From: a virus
Lineage: Duplodnaviria > Heunggongvirae > Uroviricota > Caudoviricetes
Direction: 5' to 3' (one strand)
Virus record (IMG/VR): IMGVR_UViG_3300031555_003801
Coordinates: 128,001-188,323 of that record
DNA: 60,323 nucleotides
A program made the position numbers and the translations under genes. The notes beneath the pieces were generated by a model. The model was not told where the DNA came from and did no database searches. It saw only the letters and a list, made by a program, of their open reading frames with translations. This document shows positions 1 through 60,323 of the stretch, piece after piece (the stretch's first letter is position 1; each line of letters begins with the position of its first letter).

Positions 1-159
1 TATAGTAGGATCAGCAATTAATCCAACAATTAAATAATCACAATATTTTTTACATTCATCAAGCATCAAACAATGTCCTGCGTGTAAAAAATCTCCTACT
101 ACAGAAGTAAAACCAATTATTTTATTTTCTTTTTTTAACTGATTTAATTTATCTTCCAT
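1..159 (-). CDS. Cytidylyltransferase-family nucleotidyltransferase (HxGH), runs off the left end
   Basis: Manual translation MEDKLNQLKKENKIIGFTSVVGDFLHAGHCLMLDECKKYCDYLIVGL matches the GxFDxxHxGH...CDYLIVG pattern of TagD/RfaE-like enzymes. Confidence 0.8.
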   Translation of the reverse strand, partial: MEDKLNQLKKENKIIGFTSVVGDFLHAGHCLMLDECKKYCDYLIVGLIADPTI

Positions 160-1223
160 TTTTGTTCCTTTTCTAAATTATTTAACATCTGTAAAACAAT
201 TTTTCTTTCTTCTTCTTTTTTATATCTATATAATCTAATAATATACATATATTCTAAAATAACTACAATATCATAAATATTATTTATTTTTAAATAATTA
301 TCTAAAATATCTTTATATTCCTAACTTAATTTATTTTTACTAATATTAAAATTATATTCATAATTATCTAATGACATTCTTAATTTAGCAAAATCCATTA
401 AATAAGAAGAAGCATTTATATTAAACTATGGATCTATAAAATATAATAAATTATTATTTTCTATTATATTGCTTAAAATAGTATCTCCATGAGAAAAAGA
501 AGCATTTTTCTATAATAAATCTTCTTTTTCTTTTAATAAATTTTTACAATAATTAATTTTATCTTCAATTAAATTATCTATTAAATTTTTATCTAAAATA
601 TCAAAATGATATTTTAAATTAAAATTATCATATTTTTTATTTTTAAAATTTGAAATTGTTAAAATTAATGTTAATAATTTATCATTAGTAAAATTTTCAT
701 TTAATAACTATCCTTCTATATAATTATAATATATATTATTATCTCTTGTTGCTGAAATAAATTTTGGATAATTACACATATTTTCTGCCTATTGAATCCA
801 ATTTAAAAATTCTTCTAACTTATCTTTATTTTCTAATTGTTTTTTTACAATAGAACCCATTTTATAAATTTGTTGACCGCTACCACCCTTTAAAGGATAA
901 AAACTTTCTTTTTTAAAGTTTTGTATATTCATAGCTTTATCATCAACATATAAATCTGCTAATGGTTTCCCAAAAATCAATTGATGATATTTTACTTTAT
1001 ATCTAGAAAGCCAATCTATTAATATATCTTGATTTTTTTCTTTTATTAAATCAAGATTTTCATTACAAGATAACATTCCTCTTGAAGTATATAAATAAAT
1101 TTCAATACCCTCATTATATAAAGTATTTATTTTTTCAATTACTTCTAAATCTGGAATAGCATTAGCATAATCACCATTTCTACTCCTAGAAATTGTATCA
1201 TCTATATCAAACACTATTCTCAT
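144..1223 (-). CDS. HAD phosphatase (capsule-biosynthesis type) fused to an APH/choline-kinase-like domain; TAG=Gln
   Basis: N-terminal FDIDDT...GKP...YVDDKA. Reading through TAG at 789-791 and later TAGs gives HGDTILSNII...YFIDP...DFAKL, ending at TAA 144-146. Confidence 0.8.
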
Positions 1224-2957
1224 TTAATTCATCAACATCCAATCTTTAGCATTAAAACGTTTCTTTTTCTTCTTATTATCTTCTTCTTGTTTAATATAAT
1301 AAAGTCCATATTCAAAAGCAGAAAATTTATCCTTTTTAATTCCTTTATTAGCCTGCTTTAAGATAATATTTACGCCTTCATTTTCTTCACGTAAATTCAT
1401 CATCTCTTCTTTTAATATGGAAGTTAGAACAAATGGTTTTAAATAATCTGTCCTTTGTTCAGGTTTCATATTTTGACCTTTTGTTGTTCCTAATAATTTT
1501 ACCTTAGCAACTCTTTCATCAATCAACATTTTTACCTTTCCAGAAGATAGTTGAGATTGCGCGTTCGCATGTGCTTCGGTATTAATAGGCGCATTAGCCT
1601 TAATTATATACATAGCATCTTGTTCGCAATTTGGTGTTCTATATTTTTTATATTCTGCGTCACCATCATTATACACACCAAAATCCGGAAAAGTATCCCC
1701 GGTATCTGGATCAATCTATGTTTTAACCATATAATCCACTAAACCAATACCAAGACCATTTCCGTCGATTACAAGTCTTTTTGCTTTATATTTGTAAAAT
1801 AGTCGTTTTAATTCAATAGCCTAATCTTCAAAGTGTTCATTATTAATAGTATAAATATTAACTAAACTCTTAATAGAAGAACCTTGCGGCTAAGGTGTTA
1901 CTTTAAATACACACACTACGGTGTCGCAGCCCTTACGGCCTACGTCCGCAGACAGTATATAAAAACTCGCTTTACTAGCTCTACCAGATGCTTCATATTC
2001 TGGTTGTTTTAATATTCTATTTCTATCAAACATTTCCGCATTAAAGAAGGCATCTTCAACGGAACCAGACCAAATACTTTCATATTCTCTATCAAATGAA
2101 GCTTCATTGAATGTTCCATCCATTTTTAAGTCTTGTACGAATGTCCTAGATTGAAGGCCAACTAATACTGGTATTCTCCAGGTCCCACCCATTACAAATG
2201 ACTTTTCTGGTTTAACAATTTGCCAAATCAGCAATTGAATAAGTTTATCATAAGGATATGTATTTTTCCATCCCGCAGTTGTAATATAGATTTGTGATTT
2301 ATTAAGAGTTTCATTTTCTTGCGTTGTACCATCGGCGCATCTACGGTCGATGTTCATCGTAGGAATAATAACTGCTGATAAAATATCACCATCTACACCA
2401 ACACATTCTTCTATCGCGCCTCCATGTCGACGCTTACCTCTAGAACTTTCTCGGGCCGCAATATTATCTACGAAAGAACCATTTTTAAATACATATTTAC
2501 AATAGTCTTTACCTTCAAGAGTAACACCACGACTCCAGTCAATTTCTTTTTTAAAAGCTGGAATGAGAGTACATATTTCCTAAACTTTTTCTTTTAAAAT
2601 ACCTGCAGCCTGTTCTTTACCTCCAGAAGTAACAAATAGTTTACTTCCAGGATATAATATACAACGAATCATAAGAATCATCATAACTAAAAATGATTTA
2701 GAATACGCACGCGGAAATACCGCATAACAATACTTATGTCTTATGGCCGCACGTAAAAATACTCTTTGATAAAAGTAAAAATGAAATTTCTGCGGGCCAC
2801 CATCAGGTCCGGCAAGAAAATCCACAAATAAATCTGGATACTCTCTCCAAAAGGCAATGTATTTTCTTGCTTCTGGAATTATAGCCCGCACTCTTTCTTC
2901 TGATAATCCAATTTTTTGTCTTTGTGAAGATAGATTTAGTAAGTCATCTAATGCCAT
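1224..2957 (-). CDS. terL: Terminase large subunit, 577 aa, four in-frame TAG=Gln
   Basis: Three track fragments are in one frame joined only by TAGs. Motifs FYQRVFLR, PRAYSKS (Walker A-like), RGKRRHGGAIEE, ITTAG, SADVGR and VIDGNGLGIG. Confidence 0.93.
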
Positions 2958-4157
2958 TTAAATCTCTTGGAGCATCTTTAACAATTGCTCATCTTCCTCA
3001 ATTTGTTCTTCTATAAAATCACCATACTCTGCATAATCTTCATCTGTAAGAGAATTTTCTACTGTTAAAGAATCTAATGTAATTTCTTCTTCATCAATAT
3101 CTTCTTCTGAAGGTTTAGCTTCTTCTCTTGCCATTTGCTTAACTGCATTTTCAATTAAGTTTCCTAAATTCATTTCTTCTGTAACAAGAGAACGAGTATA
3201 GTTTTTCATATCTAATAAAGTTTCATCAACTTTATCCATTGGACCATCAGTATAATATCTTGGAATAAATCCTTCTTTTTCACAAAGAGTTACTAATTCA
3301 CTAATAGAATCTACAAATTCACCTTGCTCTGCTTTATTCTGTTGCGCAGTAAATTTTCCGGATTTCATTAACTAATCATAGACTTTACTCATCTTCTGGA
3401 AACCTTCAACATCACCAATGTCGATCAGTTGATTTGCCTTTAAGGATGTCTTACATAATAATTTTAAGTTATCTATATGTCCGGCAGATTGAATGTCATA
3501 AGATTCCATCATTTCCATATATAATTGTTCTAATCGAACCCATTCTTCGGGTTTATATGATTTTCCCCACTTGAGCCGCAAATACATTTTATCTTCATCG
3601 GTTAAATCAAGTTCATCAGTTTCATCTTCATAACCTCTATCAAAATAATCTTCTGTAGCTAATGGAGCTGGTGCGTGAACAGGTTCAACGAGTTCTCCTT
3701 CGGGCACTGTAAAAGTTGCCTTGTCTATTGCTTCTGCAATTTGAACTGCATCATAACCTTGACGCTTCATTGTTTCTTCAATTTTTTTATTTGCAATTTC
3801 TTGTAAATGTTCAGTATGTTCCCAACGATAATCTCGCCATTGTTTTAATTTCATCTTAGAAAGATATCTACCAAGAATTGTCATTCCTGTTAATTTAGAT
3901 TTATCTTTTCCATATGAAGCAAGTAATTTATTCCATTCATCGGGAATATAAGGAACATCACATTCCTATAAAATCCATAAATAAGTATCTGGATTAAAAT
4001 TGTCCACATGCGCACTAATACATTTTTTACATTGGCGCAGTTTTCCTTCTTCTGGATACTTTTCTAAATTATTAGACGAATAAAATTCATCGCCACGCAT
4101 GGTTTTATTACATCGTTCACAATAATAAACTTTATTCGCAGTATCAATTGCTGCCAT
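2958..4157 (-). CDS. Zn-finger protein immediately upstream of terL (candidate small terminase/packaging accessory); two TAG=Gln
   Basis: Fragments 3966-4157, 3372-3884 and 2958-3368 share a frame and are separated by TAG only. N-terminal CERC...CKKC and acidic C-terminus. Confidence 0.75.
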
Positions 4158-4171
4158 TAATTATCACTCCT

Positions 4172-5218
4172 TTATTTTTTCGCATTTCGACATTTTTTAC
4201 AAATACTATAAAATCCATCTTTTGATGTTTTATTCTTCGAAAAATACTTATTATGAGCTAATTTAATTTGACCGCAACGACTACACTTCTTATATCTACC
4301 TTTTTCAATATTTAAATAATAATTATCTAACCATTGGTCTTCCGCAGTTGAAGCTATTAATTTTGGAATTTTATTTCGCCATAAACTTGAAATATATTCT
4401 AAACTATGTGTTATTCCAAATTCCTATTCCAAAAGATCTTGAATTTCAATGTTTTGTAATCCATCAATTTTATACTAAACAATTCTTTCATACATAGGAA
4501 ATTCTTTTAAAGCCTGGTCGCAAAGTTCATCAAAATCATACATTACATGCCAAGTATCACTTGCTAACTAATCCCAACTATCTTGTTTTAAACGAGAATA
4601 ATTACATAATATCATTGAAACAACTTTGGGATTTAACATTGAAACTCCTTTTGGAATCGGCAATCCCTTATCATCAAATTCATGTGTAGTATCTTCCAAT
4701 TGATGATAATGTTTGGACCGCACTAAATGCATAATACCATTTGGTTTTCGATAAGCATTTTTAATTATATATTGATCTTTACGCATTTCAATTAATGCGC
4801 GTTTTATAATAAAGGCATCTTTTCCTTCTGTCTATTTTAATTTTGTTTCCCATAGATTTATGGTTTCTCTTAACTATTTTAAAAACGGTATTTCTTCTAC
4901 ATCTTTTTTTGTTATTGATATTTTAGGTTGAAAAATTATCTATTTATTATCTGTCATTAAATTATATATGCCATCTTCGCCATTTTCTAACTGGGAAACA
5001 AGACCTTCAAAAGAAGTTTCACGCTTATTAATTGTGACGCCCCTGTTATCTGTGAGAATTTTCTTCTCTTTCTTTTCTTGTTTCTCCATACAAAGAACGA
5101 GATAATCAGTTAAAATTTCTAAATACTTTTCATTTGGTTCTGGGTTTTCTTTTAAAATCTATTTAACTAGCTCGTTTCTTTCTTCTGGAGATTCTAATGA
5201 ATAATCTAATTTAATCAA
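4172..5218 (-). CDS. Putative regulator with sigma-region-4-like HTH and C-terminal Zn ribbon; TAG=Gln
   Basis: TTG start after GGAGG. Open to TAA 4172 if TAG is sense. Contains YKIDGLQNIEIQDLLEQEFGITHSLEYISSLW and KCSRCGQIK...CKKC. Confidence 0.65.
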
Positions 5219-5247
5219 TCATTTATACCTCCATTTTTCCTACTTAA

Positions 5248-5309
5248 ATATTACCAAAATTTTTGTGAAAAGTCAAAGAATTGACAAAAAAATTTTTTTA
5301 TGTTATAAT
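5248..5309. promoter_or_regulatory. Back-to-back sigma-A promoters (leftward terL operon, rightward prfB operon)
   Basis: Plus strand: TTGACA 5281-5286, 17 bp, TG-TATAAT 5304-5309. Minus strand: TTGACT 5276-5271, 17 bp, TAATAT 5253-5248. Confidence 0.75.
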
Positions 5310-5339
5310 AAATTATAATAAAAAGTTATGGGAGGAATT

Positions 5340-6392
5340 ATGGAATTAAAAAATAAGTGGGAAGAATTGTATGATTTCTCCCAGGATGAAGAAAGATATG
5401 ATGAACTTTGCGCAGAACAGTGTTATGGGAACACCAATCGGCAAATTGAAATCGCAAAAGAATTAAGTAGATTAAATAATAAATTAGCATTTAAATTAAC
5501 AATCGAAAAAGCATTTGAAGCATTAGAAGTTCTTGAAGAATTAAAAGATGAAGATAAAGATTTTGAAGAAGAATATAATTTATTATTTAAAGATTTAGAA
5601 AATAAAATAAATAAATTTGAAACTGAATTATTATTAAATGGTAAATATGATAATAATAATGCTATTTTAACTCTTCATGCGGGTGAAGGTGGAGTTGAGG
5701 CGCAAGATTGGACTGAAATGTTATACAGAATGTATTGCCGATGGGCCGATTCGAGAGGATTTAGGGTTAGCCTCGTGGATCTCTTGAACGGCGAAACCGC
5801 AGGATTAAAGTCGGTCAGCATGCTCATTGAAGGTGAAAACGCATACGGATTATTAAAAAGTGAACATGGAGTTCATAGATTAGTAAGAGTATCACCTTTT
5901 GATGCGAAAGGCAGGCGGCATACTTCTTTCTCAGCAGCGGAAGTTATTCCAGAATTAAATGATGACACGCAGATTGAATTACGTCCAGAAGACCTTGAAT
6001 ATCAGACTTTTAGATCTGGAGGAGCAGGTGGTCAGTATCAAAACACTACCGAGTCCGGCATCAGAGTCATTCATAAGCCTACTGGATTAATTGCGGAAAG
6101 TCGTCAAGAGCGTTCGCAAATCCAAAACCGCAATACTTGTTTAAAGGTATTAAGAGGTAAATTAGCAGAATTAGAATTAGAAAAACAAAGAGAGGAGATT
6201 AATAAAATCAGAGGTATTCAAATGTCCAATGGTTGGGGAAGCCAAATTCGCAGCTATGTATTCATGCCTTATCAGTTGGTTAAGGACGAAAGAACTGGAT
6301 ATGAAACCGCAAAATTAAGTAAGATTATGGATGGAGACCTTGATGATTTTATTAATGCGTATTTAAAATATGAGAAAAATATTAAAATATGA
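5340..6392 (+). CDS. prfB: Peptide chain release factor 2
   Basis: RVSPF peptide anticodon (RF2-type SPF), GGAGGQ catalytic motif, WGSQIRSYV. No internal TAG and no frameshift needed. Confidence 0.95.
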   Translation: MELKNKWEELYDFSQDEERYDELCAEQCYGNTNRQIEIAKELSRLNNKLAFKLTIEKAFEALEVLEELKDEDKDFEEEYNLLFKDLENKINKFETELLLNGKYDNNNAILTLHAGEGGVEAQDWTEMLYRMYCRWADSRGFRVSLVDLLNGETAGLKSVSMLIEGENAYGLLKSEHGVHRLVRVSPFDAKGRRHTSFSAAEVIPELNDDTQIELRPEDLEYQTFRSGGAGGQYQNTTESGIRVIHKPTGLIAESRQERSQIQNRNTCLKVLRGKLAELELEKQREEINKIRGIQMSNGWGSQIRSYVFMPYQLVKDERTGYETAKLSKIMDGDLDDFINAYLKYEKNIKI

Positions 6393-6654
6393 AGTATATC
6401 CCAATGGTGTTCCAGTAAGATATAAAGGACATTTTAAACTTTTTTTAGGAGCAAAAATGTTATCCGATGGCCGCATGTATGTTTGGGTAGAAACAGATGA
6501 TAAAAGCACAGATGAATGGGAAGTAGAATTTATTTCTTTTGGAACTGGTTGGGATATTGATGAAATAGTTTGTGGCGAAATTATGGGTTATATTGGAACC
6601 ATAGAAGATATGGATGGATATGTTTGGCATATCTACGTTAGAGAGGTATGTTAA
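6370..6654 (+). CDS. Hypothetical protein
   Basis: ORF overlapping the prfB stop and coupled to the folD start (TAATG). Confidence 0.65.
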   Translation: MRKILKYEVYPNGVPVRYKGHFKLFLGAKMLSDGRMYVWVETDDKSTDEWEVEFISFGTGWDIDEIVCGEIMGYIGTIEDMDGYVWHIYVREVC

Positions 6655-7409
6655 TGGATATAAAAGAATTTTGTCAATAGTGGAAAAATGAACTGCGGGA
6701 CAAAGCTAATGCGCTCGCAAAACCAAAGCATTTAGGAATTATAGGGCATAAAGATTTACCTTATGTAAAGGGAATTGTAAAAGACTGTACGCAAATCGGT
6801 ATTCATACAAAAGTTTATGATTATGAAGAAGATATTAATTTTGCGGACTATATGAAAATAGTATATTGTGCAGAACGATATAATGATTATATTATCCTGC
6901 AAACCCCACTCCCCCCTACAATTGATGTAGAAGAATTAAAAAAATGTATTGATCCGCAAAAAGATATTGATAATATAAGTGGTAAATCCAATCATTTTCA
7001 TAATACACCGCTTGGAATTATTAAATACTTAGATGCATGTAATTTCGATTATTGCGGCGCAGACGCAGTAATCATTGGTAGAAGTGATGTGGTTGGCAAA
7101 CCAATGGCGAAAATGCTTCTTGATAAGAATTGTACAGTAACAATTTGTCATAGTAAAACAGAATATTTAGCACATTATACTGAATGGGCAGATTTAGTAG
7201 TTGTTGCTGTTGGAAAACCAGAATGGTTTGATCCAGAATTAGCAAAAAGCGCAAAGATAATTATTGATGTAGGTATTAATTTTAAAGATGGCAAAATTGT
7301 TGGTGATGTTCAAAGTCAATACGGGAGCGAAGCGAACCGCATTACTCCTGTTCCTGGTGGAGTGGGATTACTTACAAGATGTGCATTATTGGAGCAAATT
7401 ATAAAATGA
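6654..7409 (+). CDS. folD: Methylenetetrahydrofolate dehydrogenase/cyclohydrolase; TAG=Gln at codon 9
   Basis: LQTPLP, KDID, IGRSDVVGKP, TVTICHSKT, IDVGIN, TPVPGGVG. The N-terminus is restored by reading TAG 6678-6680. Confidence 0.9.
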
Positions 7410-8590
7410 TAACGCAAGAAAAAATTGATAAATATAAATATATGAATAAAGCTTCTAATGGTATTATAATGATTAAACCTGAAGAAGATTTAAAAAAACA
7501 TGAAGATAATAAACAATATAGATCTTTAGAGGATGTATTATATAATATTGATGATATTGCTGATAATTGTGAAATAATTGGTATTGGGGTAGATCCGTAC
7601 TCTGGAGAAGTATTTAATACAGATGCTTTAGCTTATCCGCATTTAGTAGAAGTATTAAAATATATTGAAAAAAAATATATTAATATCCCAGTTGTAATTA
7701 GTGCTACAGTAGATTCTATTTTAAATTATGAACAAACTTATTATAATTTATCTTTAAATATTGATTTATATAATATTGATAATTTAAATGAATTAAAAAA
7801 TAAAATTTTACCAAATATTAATTGTTTTTATATACCTTATCCGCAAAATTCGCAAATTAATTTTGATGAATTAGATTTATTATATCCAAATATTTATTAT
7901 TTTTATTGTTGTGAAAAAAGAAATAAATATGAATATTTAGGATATATTGATGAAATGAATAAACGTAATAATATTATTTTTTCACAATTAGAAAATGTAT
8001 ATAAAGATGTATATTGTAAAATTATTAAAATAAATAATAAATAGGAAGTTTATTTTCATAATAATGATTTAATTATAGCAATAAATGATTTTATTAAAGT
8101 AATGAATAATAATATGTTATTGCAATATTTATATAATTTTGAAGGATGTTGTAATTTTAGAGTATTAAGAAATAATAAAGAAATGTTTGTTGAGTGTTTT
8201 AATAAAAAAGATTTTTTAAATAATATTCATTTAAGTAAACATCTTGTAGAGAATTATGATTTATTAAGAGAATTATCAAACTTATATAAGGATAATAGTT
8301 TAATTTTATATCCAGATTATAATTTAGATATATTAACAACTCAATTATTAAATTTAAATATATCAATTAAAACAGAAGCTATTATTACAAAAGATATATT
8401 TGAAGAAAAAAATATTACTTTAAAAGATTGTGAACAAGCTTTAGAAAAATATAGAAAACAATATCCAAATAAATTAATTAATATTTTATTTATTCCTACT
8501 AGAATTATTCAAAATATTTTAAATAATGAAAAAAATATTGACTTAGAAAAATTTCAACAAAAAACAATGACATTTATCGTGGGGTTTTAA
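7406..8590 (+). CDS. Hypothetical protein, possibly a degenerate radical SAM-like partner; one TAG=Gln
   Basis: 7379-8044 and 8102-8590 are in frame across TAG 8042-8044. ATGA overlap with folD. No CxxxCxxC; weak resemblance to the next gene. Confidence 0.6.
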
Positions 8591-43087: not shown

Positions 43088-44809
43088 GTGATAGATATGC
43101 TGTTTGAAAAGCTTCCAGCAGAAGAAGTTGACATTTTAACTAAATATGTTGATGTTTTTTGTACTCAGGAATCTTATAGAGGTATCTCAATGAAAGAATA
43201 CCTGCGATTTTGGGATGCAAATAAGACTCACTTCTTCAATGGAATGTTCAAAGAAAATTTCATTTTAACAAAAAAAATTTCTTTAAAAAAGAGCCACGAA
43301 GAAAAAGAAACTGATATGAGAAATGCTCTTTGGAATGAAAATGGTAAAGAAGGTAGAATGTCTCCTTTTAGACAGAAATATACGGATAAAATTTTTCAGT
43401 TAGAAAATAATAATACTATTAACTATGTTTTAGCTATTAAATTAAGAGAATTAATGAATAGTTCTAGATTAGTTGATAATGTTTATCTTGATGAATCATT
43501 TGAAATTCCTCTGCCAGGAAATAAGAAATATCGAGTGCTGAATGGGCATAAACTTATGAAGATTTTCGCGAAGATAGCTTCTGCTTATGAAATTGAGGGA
43601 TTTGAGGAATTCAGATTGGCTCATTCACAGGTGCTGAATGATTTAGAATTCCACGGTGAATTATGCTTATCTATTCATCCTATGGACTTTTTAACAATGA
43701 GTGATAATAACTGTGATTGGTCTTCTTGTATGTCTATTATAGATAGTGGAGATTATCGTAGAGGTGTTATTGAAATGATGAACTCTGGTTGTGTTGTTAT
43801 GGCTTATTTAAAAAGTTCCACCGATATGAAAATTCCTTATATCGAAGAAGATATCTTCTGGAATAACAAGAAGTGGAGAGAATTATTTATTATCTCTGAT
43901 GAAGCTATTGTAGGCATTAAAGGATATCCATATTGGAATCTTGAATTACAGGAACTTGTAATTAAATGGATTGCGGAGCTGAATGAAGGATATTATGAAG
44001 ATGAAGTAATTCAGTTTGACTATGATGCTTCTGTTCGCATTAGAGACCACAAGTTTATCTTTGAAACTTGCGATATGTATAATGATTTTGTTTATGATAA
44101 GCATGCTATCTGTTTAAAGAAAAATCTTGAACCAAATACATATTACATTAATTATTCTGGTCCAATGGTATGCATTGGCTGCGGGACTGCTACAGGATAT
44201 TATAGTAAGGATGCTTGTAATTTCCTTGCCTGCGAAGATTGTTATAATCCTACTTATTGCGCTGATTGTGGATGCCTTATAAATGATGAAGATGCGGTTT
44301 GGTTTAATGATAGACCTTATTGTAGTTATTGCTTTGGTCAGATTCCTACTTGTTTTGAATGCGAAGAATTAACTGATGATTATACTGTTGTTTCAATTCG
44401 TTTTGATCACGATGATAATCAAATTGCAAGAAACTTTACCATTTCTTTATGTGATGATTGTTATAAAGGTTATGAAGAAAATGGATTGATTAAAATTTGT
44501 AAAAATGTTCGATGGTATGGTGATGTTAGATATATTGATGCTGAATATATCAATGATGAAAAATTCTTTGATTTATTCGGTGTGGATAAAAAAGATAGAG
44601 ATAATATTGAAGATAGATATTATCATCGTCAGGCTATTTATTATGATTTAACTCCCATTCGCACAGAGGTTGCTCCAATCGTGTGGTAGGAAGATTTGGA
44701 AAGAAAATATAAAAGGTTTTCTGAAAAAAAATATAAAATTTTTTCTGACTTAGAGAAAGAATTTCAAACTATTTATGGAAGAATTCATAACTTTGTAAAT
44801 GATTTCTAA
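43088..44809 (+). CDS. Uncharacterised protein with HPxDF..S..WxSC domain and C-terminal Zn ribbons (probable TAG read-through at 44687)
   Basis: 533 aa to TAG, then 39 further sense codons to TAA 44807-44809 filling the gap before the next promoter; paralog of 47327-48679. Confidence 0.7.
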
Positions 44810-48679: not shown

Positions 48680-48751
48680 TGGCGAAGGCCATTTTTAAAA
48701 AATCTTTTGCCAGAATTTTTCATATATAATTAGAAAGAGGTGAAAAATTTT

Positions 48752-49474
48752 ATGGGTAAAAGACTTGATTTAACAAATCAAAAATTTGGAAGATTAATAG
48801 CATTAGAAAAAGCTCCTAATAAAAATAATAGAACAAGATGGAAATGTTAGTGTGAATGTGGTAAAGAAATAGTCGTTGATACGGCAGATTTACGAAGAGG
48901 TCATACTATTTCTTGTGGATGTTTTTAGAAAGAACAAACTTCAAAAAGTTCATTAAAAGATTTAACTGGAAAATATTTTGGATTTTTAGAAGTTTTAGAA
49001 AGAGATATGAATTTTTATGGAAAACAAATTCCTTCTCATTGGATTTGTTTATGCCATAAATGTAATGAAATTAAATCTATTAGTTCTACTTCATTAAATA
49101 ATGGAACTATTTCTTGTGGTTGCCAAAAATCAAAAGGTGAATTTAAAATTATGGAATTATTAAAAGAAAATTCTATAAGTTTTATTAGTGAGTATAAATT
49201 TTTAGATTATAAAAATAGAAGATTTGATTTTGCTATTTTAGATGAAAATAATAAAGTTATTAGACTAATTGAATTTGATGGAATTTAGCATTATTATAGA
49301 CCTAAGGCTAATCACTGGTCTGCAAATTCTACTTTAGAAGAAACTCAAAAGAGAGATAAAGAAAAAAATGAAATTGCTAAACAATACAATATTCCTTTAG
49401 TTAGAATACCTTATTGGCATCTAAATGATATAACTATTGATATGTTGTTAAATGATGATAAATATATAGTTTAA
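48752..49474 (+). CDS. Free-standing homing-type endonuclease (Zn repeats plus DUF559/Vsr-like nuclease); three TAG=Gln
   Basis: DLTNQKFGRL...WKC(Q)CECG...SCGC; FDFAI...IEFDGI(Q)H...RDKEKN...LVRIPYW. Confidence 0.85.
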
Positions 49475-56976: not shown

Positions 56977-57791
56977 CAAAAAAACGGTTATTTGAAATTC
57001 CTTACAATTTTGATATAAAATTAATAGAAAGTTTAAAAATTTTTGATCCAGAAGGATTAACAATTGCTTGTATTTATATACCTCCATTTTATGAAGATTA
57101 TGAAACAATTTTAAGAGGGCATGAATCAAATTTACTTATAAATATATTAACAAGAGATGAATATGAAAAACATATTCATCTCATTAATAGTATGTTTCCA
57201 AATAAATTACAATTATTATTACAAAAACAAGAGCAAATAATGTCAAAAGAAAAATTACAATACTATATAAATTTAGGTTTTTCTAATTTTTGCGTAGGAA
57301 ATTTAGAACAAGCAAAAATTATTAAAAATATTGATTCTAATTTTATTGTAGTTGGTTCTATTTCAATGCGATTAACATTAAAAGAAATAAATAATAATCA
57401 TAATTATGAAAATTATTTTGATTATATAGTTTTACATTTTCCTTTTTGTAGAAATTTAAATGAAATAAAACAATTAACAAAAAAATATAAATATATCTTA
57501 TTAGTAAATGCTTATTGTCATGCTCATTGCGATGGAAAACATCATTGGGAAAGAGAATATAAAACAGAAAATAGTTATTGTCCAGGAAGATTAGGTGGAA
57601 ATTTATTAAAATGGAAATATGCTACAAGAATTAGACCAATGGATTTAGATTTATTTTCTCCATATATAGAAATATTTAAAATACAAGATAGAGGGTGGCC
57701 AACTAGAGATATTTTAAGAGATTATATATTATATTCTAGTGATTATTCTTATTATCCAGAAATAAATTATACAGAAAGGATTTATAATTAA
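56973..57791 (+). CDS. Peptidase-U32-like Fe-S protein
   Basis: LLVNAYCHAHC...H...CP...IRPMDL...FKIQDR pattern. Confidence 0.6.
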   Translation: MTKKRLFEIPYNFDIKLIESLKIFDPEGLTIACIYIPPFYEDYETILRGHESNLLINILTRDEYEKHIHLINSMFPNKLQLLLQKQEQIMSKEKLQYYINLGFSNFCVGNLEQAKIIKNIDSNFIVVGSISMRLTLKEINNNHNYENYFDYIVLHFPFCRNLNEIKQLTKKYKYILLVNAYCHAHCDGKHHWEREYKTENSYCPGRLGGNLLKWKYATRIRPMDLDLFSPYIEIFKIQDRGWPTRDILRDYILYSSDYSYYPEINYTERIYN

Positions 57792-59071
57792 TGAAATATT
57801 CATTTTTAATTGCTATAACTAATAATTGTAATTTAAATTGTAGCGGATGTGCCTGGATGTGTAGTAATATAAATGAAGAAAATAAGTGGTTTATTCCTAA
57901 AAAGGAATTTGAAAATAATTTAAAAATTTTAAAAGAAAAATTACCAAATTTAGATGCAATTGATATTACAGGCGGAGAAACTTTAATACATCCAGATTTT
58001 ATGGATTTAATGGATATATTAATTTCTTTTAAAGAAAAAACTTCACATTTAGTTTGGACGAATGGTTTATTATTAGATAAAATATCAGATGAAGATTTAA
58101 TTAAATTATATAATAATAATATTTATTTTTAGATTGCTATTTATCCTGGAATTTTATAGTATTAGGAAAATTAGAAAAAACGATTTAAAAAATTAAAATT
58201 AAATATACATAGCAATGGTATGCGAATTTTCTTTAATAAACCTAGATATAATTTAAATGGCCATATGGATATAGAAGAACAATTTAAAACATGTGAATAT
58301 TTTCATGAACCATATCAATTTATTTTATATAAAAATAAAATTTATTGTTGCCCAACCGAACCCCATATGATTGAAAACTTAAATTTACCAGATGATCCAA
58401 AATGTTATATAAATATCAGTGACTTAAAAAGTGAAGAAGATTTAATGAAATTAGTTTCAGAAGGCCATAATATATGTAAATATTGTAGAGATAAAAATAT
58501 GGGAAATGATGTTTTTCCATGGTCTGCTGGAAATTTTAAAAATAAAAATTATAATTTTAAATCATTAAAAGATTTATATCTATATAATTATGATGAATAT
58601 TTTAATTTACTTAATGATATTAATTCAATTAAATCAATTTCTGAAATTTTAACAAATGCTAATAAATATATTTAGTATATGGGAAGACATCGTGGAAATG
58701 ATTTTTATGCAATTAGAAATTATTATAAAAAAATATTTGGAACTTTAGATATAATTATTCCTTTTTCTGATAAAATAGATAATAAACAAATAAATAAAAT
58801 TAAAGAAATATTAAAAATAAAAAATCGTAATATTAATATGTATTTTATTAGTATAAAAGAAAATAATATAAATATAGAAAATCAAATTTATAATTTATTT
58901 AGACCTGGTAATATGAATCAAAATAATATTTTCTTTTTAAAAACAGAAAATATTACTTTAGAAGAAATAGTAAATAAATATACTTTTAGTAAATATATTT
59001 ATTATTTACCTTTAGATAATAATCAAAATAATGATTATAAAATTATAAAAAGGAGAAAAATAAATGAATAA
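57791..59071 (+). CDS. Radical SAM protein (426 aa) with twitch-like region and extra C-terminal domain; TAG=Gln
   Basis: CNLNCSGC, TGGETLIHP, WTNG; three track fragments in one frame joined only by TAGs. Confidence 0.88.
58736..59050 (+). repeat. 315-bp direct repeat, copy 1
   Basis: Appears identical by eye to 60009-60323 (offset 1273 bp). Confidence 0.9.
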
Positions 59072-60323
59072 TAGTAAATATTCATTTTTAGTAATTATTA
59101 ATACAAAATGTAATTTAAATTGTACTGGCTGTTCTGTTTTATGTTCTACAAAAAACGAAGGGTGGTCTATTTCTAAAGAAGAATTTGAAAATAATATAAA
59201 AATTTTAAAAGAAAAATTACCAAATTTAAGAACAATTGATATTACCGGTGGAGAAACTTTAATACATCCAGATTTTATGGATTTAATGGATATATTAATT
59301 AAATATAATAATACAGCAGCACATACTCAAGTTTGGACAAATGGTTTATTATTAGATAAAATATCAGATGACAATTTAATTAAATTATATAATAATAATA
59401 TTTATTTTCAAAAATCTCTTTATCCAATTTTCCTTGAAAAACATGAAGAATAGGATGAACGTTTTAAAAAATTAAATATTCCATTAAGAGTTTCAGGATT
59501 AAGATTATTTTTTAATAGATTTTTATATAGTAAATTTATTAAACAAGATTATTTATAGGCTTTTAAAAATTGCAGACATTTTAATGAGAAACCATATCAA
59601 TTTATTTTATATAAAAATAAAATTTATTCTTGTTGCACTCTTCCTTATATGATGGAATACTTAAATCTTGAAGAAAATCCAAAATCATATATAAATATAA
59701 ATGATTTAAAAAGTGAAGAAGATTTAATGAAATTAATTTCAGAACCGCTTGAAGATTGTCAATATTGTATCAATGGAAGAGATGATTTTGATAATTTTCC
59801 CTGGCATCCTGAAGTATATCCATATAATTTTACTAAAACTTTACAAGAATTATTTTTATTTGATTATAAAAAATATCATGATTTAAATCATAATGAAATT
59901 GTATTAAATTATTTTCCTTTATTATTAAAAACAGGAAAGTATTTTAAATTTTTAGGCCGAATGAATGGAAATGACTGGTTTAAAATTAAGCCTTATAATA
60001 ATCGTTTTTTTGGAACTTTAGATATAATTATTCCTTTTTCTGATAAAATAGATAATAAACAAATAAATAAAATTAAAGAAATATTAAAAATAAAAAATCG
60101 TAATATTAATATGTATTTTATTAGTATAAAAGAAAATAATATAAATATAGAAAATCAAATTTATAATTTATTTAGACCTGGTAATATGAATCAAAATAAT
60201 ATTTTCTTTTTAAAAACAGAAAATATTACTTTAGAAGAAATAGTAAATAAATATACTTTTAGTAAATATATTTATTATTTACCTTTAGATAATAATCAAA
60301 ATAATGATTATAAAATTATAAAA
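59064..60323 (+). CDS. Radical SAM protein, tandem paralog of 57791-59071, runs off the right end; TAG=Gln
   Basis: CNLNCTGC, TGGETLIHP; continues past TAG 59451. Confidence 0.88.
60009..60323 (+). repeat. 315-bp direct repeat, copy 2
   Basis: Appears identical by eye to 58736-59050; ends at the window edge. Confidence 0.9.

Follow-up and report, generated by a model that had tools for sequence, protein, structure and literature searches.

In the tailed phage genome held as IMG/VR record IMGVR_UViG_3300031555_003801, the amber codon TAG very probably encodes glutamine (Gln) in the late genes for packaging, head and tail and in several accessory genes, and TAA and TGA stay stops. The window analyzed here, 60,323 nucleotides long, comprises bases 128001-188323 of this 188,323-bp genome (29.7% G+C), that is, its last 60 kb; positions below refer to the window unless marked as genome positions. 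The original prediction of genetic code 15 is supported by the residues that homologs carry at TAG columns, by the fit of a Gln substitution model to those columns, and by a phage tRNA with a CUA anticodon.

The residue read at TAG

Under code 11, the first 8,590 bases of the window hold short open reading frames (ORFs) that are broken by TAG and never by TAA or TGA, as had been predicted. Once TAG is read, these join into ORFs of 359, 577, 399, 348 and 403 aa with 5, 4, 2, 7 and 1 TAG, respectively. ORFs of at least 250 aa cover 0.13 of this region under code 11 and 0.95 under code 15; with TGA read through instead, they cover just 0.22. Frame 0 of the seven genes in the region contains 20 TAG, 0 TAA and 0 TGA, and every other frame of each gene contains 10-47 TAA, the commonest out-of-frame stop triplet in these genes. 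The large terminase subunit gene (terL; 1224-2957, minus strand) is indeed hit by TAG alone, with four in-frame codons (2580-2582, 1890-1892, 1821-1823 and 1716-1718), and the portal gene contains seven. Gene junctions also fit when TAG is read: 1-8590 has two TAAATG abutments, which flank the terminase gene, and one 1-nt spacer, and over the whole genome neighboring genes overlap by four nt at 14 junctions and by one nt at 12, and abut at 6.

Across the genome, the share covered by stop-to-stop ORFs of 200 aa or more rises from 0.43 under code 11 to 0.71 when TAG is read, and stays at 0.43 when TGA is read instead. Greedy calling with TAG as a sense codon, in which gene starts were taken from the longest ORFs, gave 240 genes that together span 0.93 of the genome; 112 of them contain in-frame TAG, 426 codons in all. 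Of the 240 genes, 194 end in TAA, 45 in TGA, and one runs off the contig end. Against taking coverage as proof, reading TAA through also opens frames (0.66 of the genome). Such coverage is expected at 30% G+C and is no evidence, so more weight falls on the homolog tally.

For this tally, 37 genes of genome 100-142 kb were translated with TAG as X and aligned by tBLASTn to 80 related loci (1.42 Mb, 1098 high-scoring segment pairs), and the subject codon under each aligned query codon was read. Segment pairs above 97% identity, which came from a near-identical contig, were excluded, as were cells at which fewer than four of the eight flanking residues were identical. The 54 TAG columns comprise 2778 cells, and Gln accounts for 1128 of the 2118 that are not themselves TAG. 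The main counts by residue are Q 1128, TAG 660, E 287, K 152, S 102, N 89, D 63 and T 61, with Leu 15 and Tyr 6 among the rest, and the leading codons are CAA 817, TAG 660, CAG 311, GAA 242 and AAA 116. By column, the commonest non-TAG residue is Q in 31 of the 54, followed by E (6), S (4), K (3), M (2) and D (2), with G, C, L, N, V and I in one column each. When the TAG columns were scored with 20 models, each being the substitution profile of one amino acid within the same alignments, Gln fitted best (mean log-likelihood per cell -1.86), ahead of Glu (-3.19), K (-3.56), Ser (-3.82), Tyr (-5.49) and Leu (-5.57). The Q share of non-TAG cells at TAG columns (53%) can be compared with 60% at true Gln codons.

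The clearest columns lie in conserved proteins. Only Q and TAG occur at TerL aa 379 (Q 44 and TAG 34 of 78 cells) and at portal aa 285 (Q 52, TAG 27). Elsewhere in TerL, Q fills 42 of 69 cells at aa 126, Q 52 plus TAG 21 of 78 at aa 356, and Q 47 plus TAG 18 of 66 at aa 414. The gene at 2958-4157 has Q in 53 of 66 cells at aa 64, and S in 44 of 67 at aa 262, a variable column. In the gene at 4172-5218, all 55 cells at aa 115 are either Q (34) or TAG (21), and its remaining TAG columns are variable. The endonuclease motifs from which the amino acid had been deduced are real, with TAG at the position in question: the ORF at 48707-49474 reads RWKC-TAG-CECG (aa 48) and IEFDGI-TAG-HY (aa 194), and the latter TAG stands opposite CAA (Q) in the homolog of phage H1, within EVNGEQHY.

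The relatives' own in-frame TAG codons fall opposite this phage's Q in 653 cells, E in 152, K in 145 and TAG in 660, and no in-frame TAA or TGA was found in any aligned homolog stretch; on this comparison, the relatives are recoded too. The same figures bear on the possibility that the TAG codons are not translated, whether because the genes are split or are pseudogenes, or because CAG became TAG through an error of sequencing or assembly. The one point in its favor is that the contig comes from a metagenome assembly. However, the 660 shared cells show that independent contigs from many samples have TAG in the same columns, the 653 subject TAGs lie opposite Gln, frames are interrupted by TAG alone, with the essential TerL and portal genes affected, and the genome carries a matching tRNA(CUA) and a release factor 2 (RF2). 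The excess of CAA over CAG opposite TAG also means that neither C-to-T error at CAG nor mutational nearness suffices as an explanation. We therefore give this possibility almost no credence.

The following points weigh against decoding as Gln. The 80 relatives share phylogeny and the cells are not independent, which makes the per-column figure of 31 of 54 the safer one. Four distant cultured phages annotated with ordinary codes give a weaker signal that points the same way (Q 33, K 33, E 28, L 25 and N 22 of 263 cells), in which Gln ties with Lys at about 12.5%; the well-conserved contexts among them, TerL aa 356 and aa 379 and the GEQHY motif, give Q. The residue at TAG was also read from sequence comparison and not from proteins.

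A suppressor tRNA with an extra arm

One tRNA gene with a CUA anticodon was found, at genome 11061-11151, outside the window (ARAGORN; Rfam tRNA 51.2 bits); the window itself holds no tRNA gene. It stands at the end of an array of 21 tRNA genes (ARAGORN) at genome 1.8-11.2 kb, and directly 3' of it are a terminator with a 12-bp stem and then a predicted 11/12 promoter toward the early genes. For a hepatitis delta virus (HDV)-like (theta) ribozyme beside the tRNA (cf. PMC10879173), Rfam gave no match at E up to 0.01 over genome 1-13000.

The tRNA(CUA) is 91 nt long, with a stem-loop in the variable region and a discriminator G. A 23-base pattern from its 3' half was present in 15 IMG/VR stretches, 12 of which have a homologous tRNA(CUA) of 89-95 nt. 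The cloverleaf common to the 10 unique long CUA tRNAs has 22 predicted pairs, seven of them with compensatory changes, the extra-arm stem included. In all 10, positions 1:72 are unpaired (A.C or U.U), 73 is G, 2:71 is G-C and G10 is present; the D arm of the long tRNA(CUA) has 4 bp and an 8-nt loop. In this phage 1:72 is an A.C mismatch and 3:70 is C-G.

The bacterial Gln identity set is given in PMC9976931 as G73, U1-A72, G2-C71, G3-C70, G10, U34, U35, G36, A37 and U38, and the same review describes an amber tRNA-Ser switched to Gln through changes at 1-72 and 3-70. Among the acceptor and core marks, the phage tRNA has G73, G2-C71 and G10 and lacks U1-A72 and G3-C70; its main anticodon loop, C-U-CUA-A-A, has U35 and A37 and lacks G36 and U38. 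It thus departs from the Escherichia coli Gln set at 3:70 (C-G), 38 (A) and 1:72 (a mismatch, not U-A), which counts against its being loaded with Gln. A related lineage, L216, has the full U1-A72, G2-C71, G3-C70 and G73 set.

The tip of the extra arm in all 10 unique sequences reads Y-U-(C/U)UG-N-R, as CUCUGAA, CUUUGAA, UUCUGAG or UUCUGCA. A covariance-model search of 25 relatives added two further long-CUA lineages, for 12 unique sequences in total, and the heptamer is present in 11 of these. None of the 57 unique long tRNAs for Leu, Tyr, Ser or Asn that these phages encode contains it. In the twelfth CUA tRNA the corresponding sequence is CUCUGAC, in an arm whose stem has 5 bp and whose loop has 7 nt, and the acceptor end has U1-A72, G2-C71, G3-C70 and G73. 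Across differing stems, the triplet in the arm alternates between CUG and UUG, both Gln anticodons, and the design occurs in at least two acceptor-stem lineages. In minimum-energy folds the extra-arm loop is often shorter than 7 nt, and its exact shape is unsettled.

We tentatively suggest that the extra arm may be a working mimic of the Gln anticodon stem-loop, which would show CUG or UUG to the synthetase while the CUA arm reads UAG, although we consider this somewhat less probable than its opposite. The CUA anticodon is without the identity mark that is read by glutaminyl-tRNA synthetase (GlnRS), or by a non-discriminating glutamyl-tRNA synthetase (GluRS) with GatCAB, so a second arm would supply it. 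As a rule, class I synthetases leave the variable loop facing solvent. If the mimic is real, it would be a new way of setting tRNA identity and would explain how a reader of a stop codon is loaded with Gln without a phage synthetase. Literature searches, with supplementary tRNA tables lying outside them, found no published description of the design; the Borges preprint remarks only that such tRNAs might have non-canonical structures (10.1101/2021.08.26.457843).

The shape of this tRNA could also point to another amino acid at TAG, namely Ser, Tyr or Leu, or pyrrolysine (Pyl), the label assigned by ARAGORN. At 91 nt, with a long variable arm and discriminator G, it resembles bacterial tRNA-Ser, and Ser is the commonest residue in 4 of the 54 TAG columns. 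In relatives the CUA gene adjoins tRNA-Tyr(GUA), and the mean identity of the tRNA is highest to the phages' Tyr tRNAs (0.65, versus 0.55 for Gln), a measure biased by the difference in length. The column tallies nevertheless rule out decoding as Ser, Tyr or Leu, the candidates prompted by the long arm and discriminator G: these residues occupy 102, 6 and 15 of the non-TAG cells compared with 1128 for Gln, and their models fit far worse. The unpaired 1:72 and the D arm with its 4-bp stem and 8-nt loop also argue against such a tRNA, as does the Gln anticodon in the extra arm, which has no counterpart among the 57 long tRNAs of other specificities. Columns that look like Lys, which could hint at Pyl, make up only a minority (152 cells), and tRNA-Pyl has a very short variable loop. 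Any amino acid other than Gln is therefore highly improbable. The idea that the gene is a recent copy of the neighboring tRNA-Tyr was rejected, as pairwise identity is just 0.63-0.69 to Tyr, Lys, Ser and Leu tRNAs alike. Classical su+3 mutants of tRNA-Tyr are reported to be charged with Gln.

Other relatives have an ordinary tRNA(CUA) of 72-75 nt, and those whose ends were read have U1, G73 and mostly an unpaired 1:72. The covariance model of the long tRNA scored above 90 bits in 4 of the 25 relatives. The clade uses at least two suppressor-tRNA designs.

Further small RNAs were observed in and around the array. A tRNA-like gene at genome 3599-3671 (Rfam tRNA 46.9 bits) was not called by ARAGORN; its anticodon arm has 16 instead of 17 bases. 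A full-length ROOL RNA lies inside the array at genome 5099-5707 (RF03087, 337 bits; gathering score 99), and between tRNA genes, at genome 6264-6363, there is a weak match to YrlA (Y RNA-like), with 35 bits against a gathering score of 69. A phage tmRNA with the tag AKPYRLAA (ARAGORN) occurs at genome 10465-10814 (RF00023, 102.6 bits), about 250 bases upstream of tRNA(CUA). One relative that carries the long tRNA(CUA), G021, has an 80-nt tRNA-like gene with the anticodon UCA (locus L213, 147-226; also in L117), labeled tRNA-SeC by ARAGORN, which could be a reader of TGA.

Early genes, release factor 2 and a possible loading route

In the minus-strand late block (genome 68-133 kb, to window 5218), TAG occurs 11.8 times per 1000 codons and accounts for 29% of Gln and TAG codons taken together; the plus-strand early and replication block (genome 11-68 kb) has 2.6 per 1000. 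As a refinement of the original prediction, recoding is not uniform: TAG is concentrated in late genes and rare in early ones. Two genes within the early block, at genome 30301-31560 and 42210-43160, are rich in TAG, with seven each; in the first, six of the seven are at aa 158-184.

Single TAG codons of the early block are mostly in the first 21% or the last 7% of the longest ORF. Those in the first fifth are probably upstream of the true start. When the first fifth (20%) of every ORF is left out, 13 of the 31 TAGs in non-late genes with no more than two TAG lie in the last 15 codons, compared with 2.9 expected (binomial p = 2e-6), whereas the late block has 9 of 185 compared with 6.8 expected. 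This C-terminal excess, seen in TAG-poor non-late genes and not in the late block, suggests that TAG could be Gln in late and some accessory genes and still a stop in some early or small genes before the suppressor builds up; late in infection, those genes would then gain short read-through tails. The Borges preprint likewise describes early genes as compatible with the standard code (10.1101/2021.08.26.457843). Three C-terminal cases suit read-through equally, however, since the extended frame ends in a 4-nt overlap (ATGA/GTGA type) with the next gene, and the support is a positional statistic on genes whose starts are longest ORFs. We judge the chances of a dual meaning to be even. At 43088-44809, homology in five relatives ends before the TAG; in a pattern search with this region, none of five matches was confirmed as a relative.

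Divergent from the TAG-rich packaging operon is a gene for RF2 (5328-6392, plus strand), which is a single frame with 0 TAG and ends in TGA. Its product scores 426.7 bits with TIGR00020 (prfB; cut-off 370), and two RF1 models give 247 and 239 bits, under their cut-offs of 400 and 423. The RF-1 domain is recognized at E 8e-34, and the translation has a GGQ motif and the tripeptide SPF, which we take to be a mark of RF2. A predicted sigma-70-type promoter (5281-5309, plus strand; TTGACA-17 nt-TG-TATAAT), a 12/12 match to consensus only, lies 19 nt upstream of the gene. No GlnRS or GluRS catalytic domain (PF00749) was detected in the phage genome, and the control matched in 14 of 14 genomes.

From this gene content we hypothesize that, early in infection, the host would use the standard code to express the tRNA array, RF2 and the early genes, which are nearly free of TAG. 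With the build-up of tRNA(CUA) and its loading with Gln by host enzymes, the TAG-bearing late genes would become translatable. The extra RF2 would keep termination at TAA and TGA efficient and add no factor that reads TAG, and the Gln anticodon of the extra arm may supply the signal missing from the CUA anticodon. Loading could proceed by GlnRS directly, or by a non-discriminating GluRS followed by GatCAB; the first base pair matters for both routes according to PMC9976931.

Some observations do not favor this scheme. Among five Oscillospiraceae/Ruminococcus-type genomes, GlnRS scored over the cut-off in two and GatB in four. RF2 is no fixed part of the kit: of 25 related contigs, 2 have an RF-1 domain, and the count is also 2 among the 16 contigs with a completeness of 90% or more; it is an accessory, optional in the clade. 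The host itself was deduced from RF2 similarity only: the closest RF2 genes of cellular origin share about 50-55% identity with that of the phage and come from Oscillospiraceae, Ruminococcus and other gut or rumen Clostridia, and the phage host probably belongs to this group. These neighbors fit the terminase, whose affinities are Firmicute, and the hosts suggested for phage phAss-1 in PMC10607447.

Genomic setting and relation to known recoded phages

The first and last 117 bases of the genome are identical, and IMG/VR classes it as having direct terminal repeats. Searches with the portal protein (tBLASTn) identified 227 IMG/VR relatives; the best 80 are 59-72% identical, apart from one at 99%, and many are on contigs of 150-200 kb. 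One relative, G015 (IMGVR_UViG_3300032167_000002, 402 kb; loci L021, L044, L216 and L232), has two different portal loci, with 65% and 62% identity to this phage, and at least four different tRNA(CUA) genes; the contig may be a join of two phages.

The protein encoded at 1224-2957 aligns by tblastn with the annotated TerL of Enterococcus phage H1, with 51.5% identity across 96% of its length; its identity to the terminases of Geobacillus virus E3, Alicyclobacillus phage KKP_3916, Brevibacillus phage Sundance and many Bacillus phages is 31-51%. The protein had no match in Pfam, NCBIfam or PDB sequences, and its identity rests on these tblastn alignments to annotated phage terminases. Two families of 'unknown function', phrog_15503 (E 7e-65) and phrog_24618 (E 7e-50), match its N- and C-terminal halves, and are probably fragments made by calling recoded phages with table 11.

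Three further minus-strand genes adjoin the terminase gene or lie close to it. The one at 144-1223, whose product has a HAD/phosphatase-like N-terminal part (phrog_1238), has five in-frame TAG (aa 145, 172, 238, 266 and 301), none of which reached the homolog tally. A conserved phage protein of phrog_3314, a family without assigned function, is encoded at 2958-4157 with two in-frame TAG, and a sigma-factor-like protein (phrog_5767) with a Cys-rich C-terminal tail at 4172-5218 with seven.

On the plus strand, FolD (methylene-tetrahydrofolate dehydrogenase/cyclohydrolase; 6648-7409) was identified by PF02882 (1.6e-44), PF00763 and matches to FolD in PDB (to 6e-40). Its TAG (6678-6680) is in the poorly conserved N-terminus and is aligned to K in one PDB alignment and to D (5), N (2) and Q (1) in relatives. 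FolD was considered as a cellular check on this codon and set aside as uninformative, as the PDB alignments begin after the TAG or give K. The ORF at 7379-8590 (plus strand), either one gene or two, has one TAG (8042-8044) and no relative in five related genomes. The HNH/homing-type endonuclease (48752-49474, plus strand; phrog_374 and phrog_559) has three TAG in its likely coding sequence, at 48848-48850, 48926-48928 and 49286-49288. At the right end of the window (57791-60323, plus strand), two paralogous genes of about 1.28 kb stand in tandem, with five and two in-frame TAG, respectively. The two copies share 71-91% identity in DNA and 64% in protein, and the second extends into the terminal repeat; opposite TAG, the paralogs have Q, E, H, K and E, plus one TAG-TAG column. 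In the 30 kb at 12000-42000, most genes are small (50-160 aa), on the plus strand and poor in TAG, and the G+C content is 0.29-0.36, slightly above the 0.20-0.28 at the window ends. Rfam at gathering scores gave no match over the window.

For annotation, the genome should be translated with table 15, at least in the late block, as table 11 would fragment the terminase, portal, tail and many accessory genes. The Gln-anticodon arm is a testable lead on how a tRNA that reads a stop codon comes to be charged correctly by host enzymes, and beside it the retention of TAG as a stop in some early genes is a hint worth carrying forward.

Recoding of TAG to Gln was, as the original prediction noted, already known; Lak, crAss-like, Agate and phAss-1 phages are examples, and proteomic validation of code-15 phages is reported in PMC9523058. 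Recoding here is thus a known phenomenon in a further phage, and the Gln-anticodon arm is the part for which we found no published description.

Laboratory amber suppressors, among them E. coli tRNA-Gln(CUA) and a tRNA-Ser converted to Gln, offer the closest parallel to the build of the phage tRNA, given that a tRNA body with a CUA anticodon, G73 and a 1:72 pair that is weak or open is accepted as Gln, and that changes at the acceptor end can convert a body with a long variable arm to Gln identity (PMC9976931). The phage tRNA differs from these in being natural, in having C3-G70, and in an arm that is not plain type II but displays CUG or UUG in an anticodon-loop context; it is known from sequence alone. 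The laboratory Gln amber suppressors go by the names supE and glnV.

In the sections of the Borges preprint drawn on here (10.1101/2021.08.26.457843), the Lak, crAss-like and gemstone clades resemble this phage in having TAG-rich structural and late genes, their own tRNA(CUA), no dedicated synthetase and a host predicted to use the standard code; the extra arm with a Gln anticodon is a feature of this phage by comparison. The same sections report RF2 in TAG-recoded members (six Lak and two Agate) and propose a model for Lak and Agate in which a suppressor tRNA and RF2 accompany recoded late genes. Unlike Lak and crAss-like phages, this phage groups by its terminase with large Firmicute siphovirus-like phages (Enterococcus H1, Geobacillus E3 and Bacillus FADO). 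The Agate clade, compared by description only and from the same source, infects Firmicutes and mixes standard, TGA-recoded and TAG-recoded members; its mean genome size is 154 +/- 27 kb, whereas this phage is larger, at 188 kb. Homing endonucleases among Agate early genes are strongly recoded, and the HNH gene of this phage likewise has its three TAG.

phAss-1, of the proposed Phassvirus (OQ749652; PMC10607447; NCBI 'Caudoviricetes code 15 clade'), is similar in reading TAG as Gln in TerL, portal and tail genes and, like this phage, has tRNA-Sup-CTA genes and no synthetase, with Clostridia predicted as hosts (PMC10607447). It differs in its genome of 136 kb and its three suppressor tRNAs, and the terms 'release factor' and 'variable' occur 0 times in the text of PMC10607447. 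The two terminases are 44.5% identical over 94%, too low for the same genus, and the 85 TAG columns aligned to phAss-1 contain Q in 15 and TAG in 7. To this large Firmicute-type clade of TAG-recoded phages, the present record adds a complete 188-kb genome with terminal repeats.

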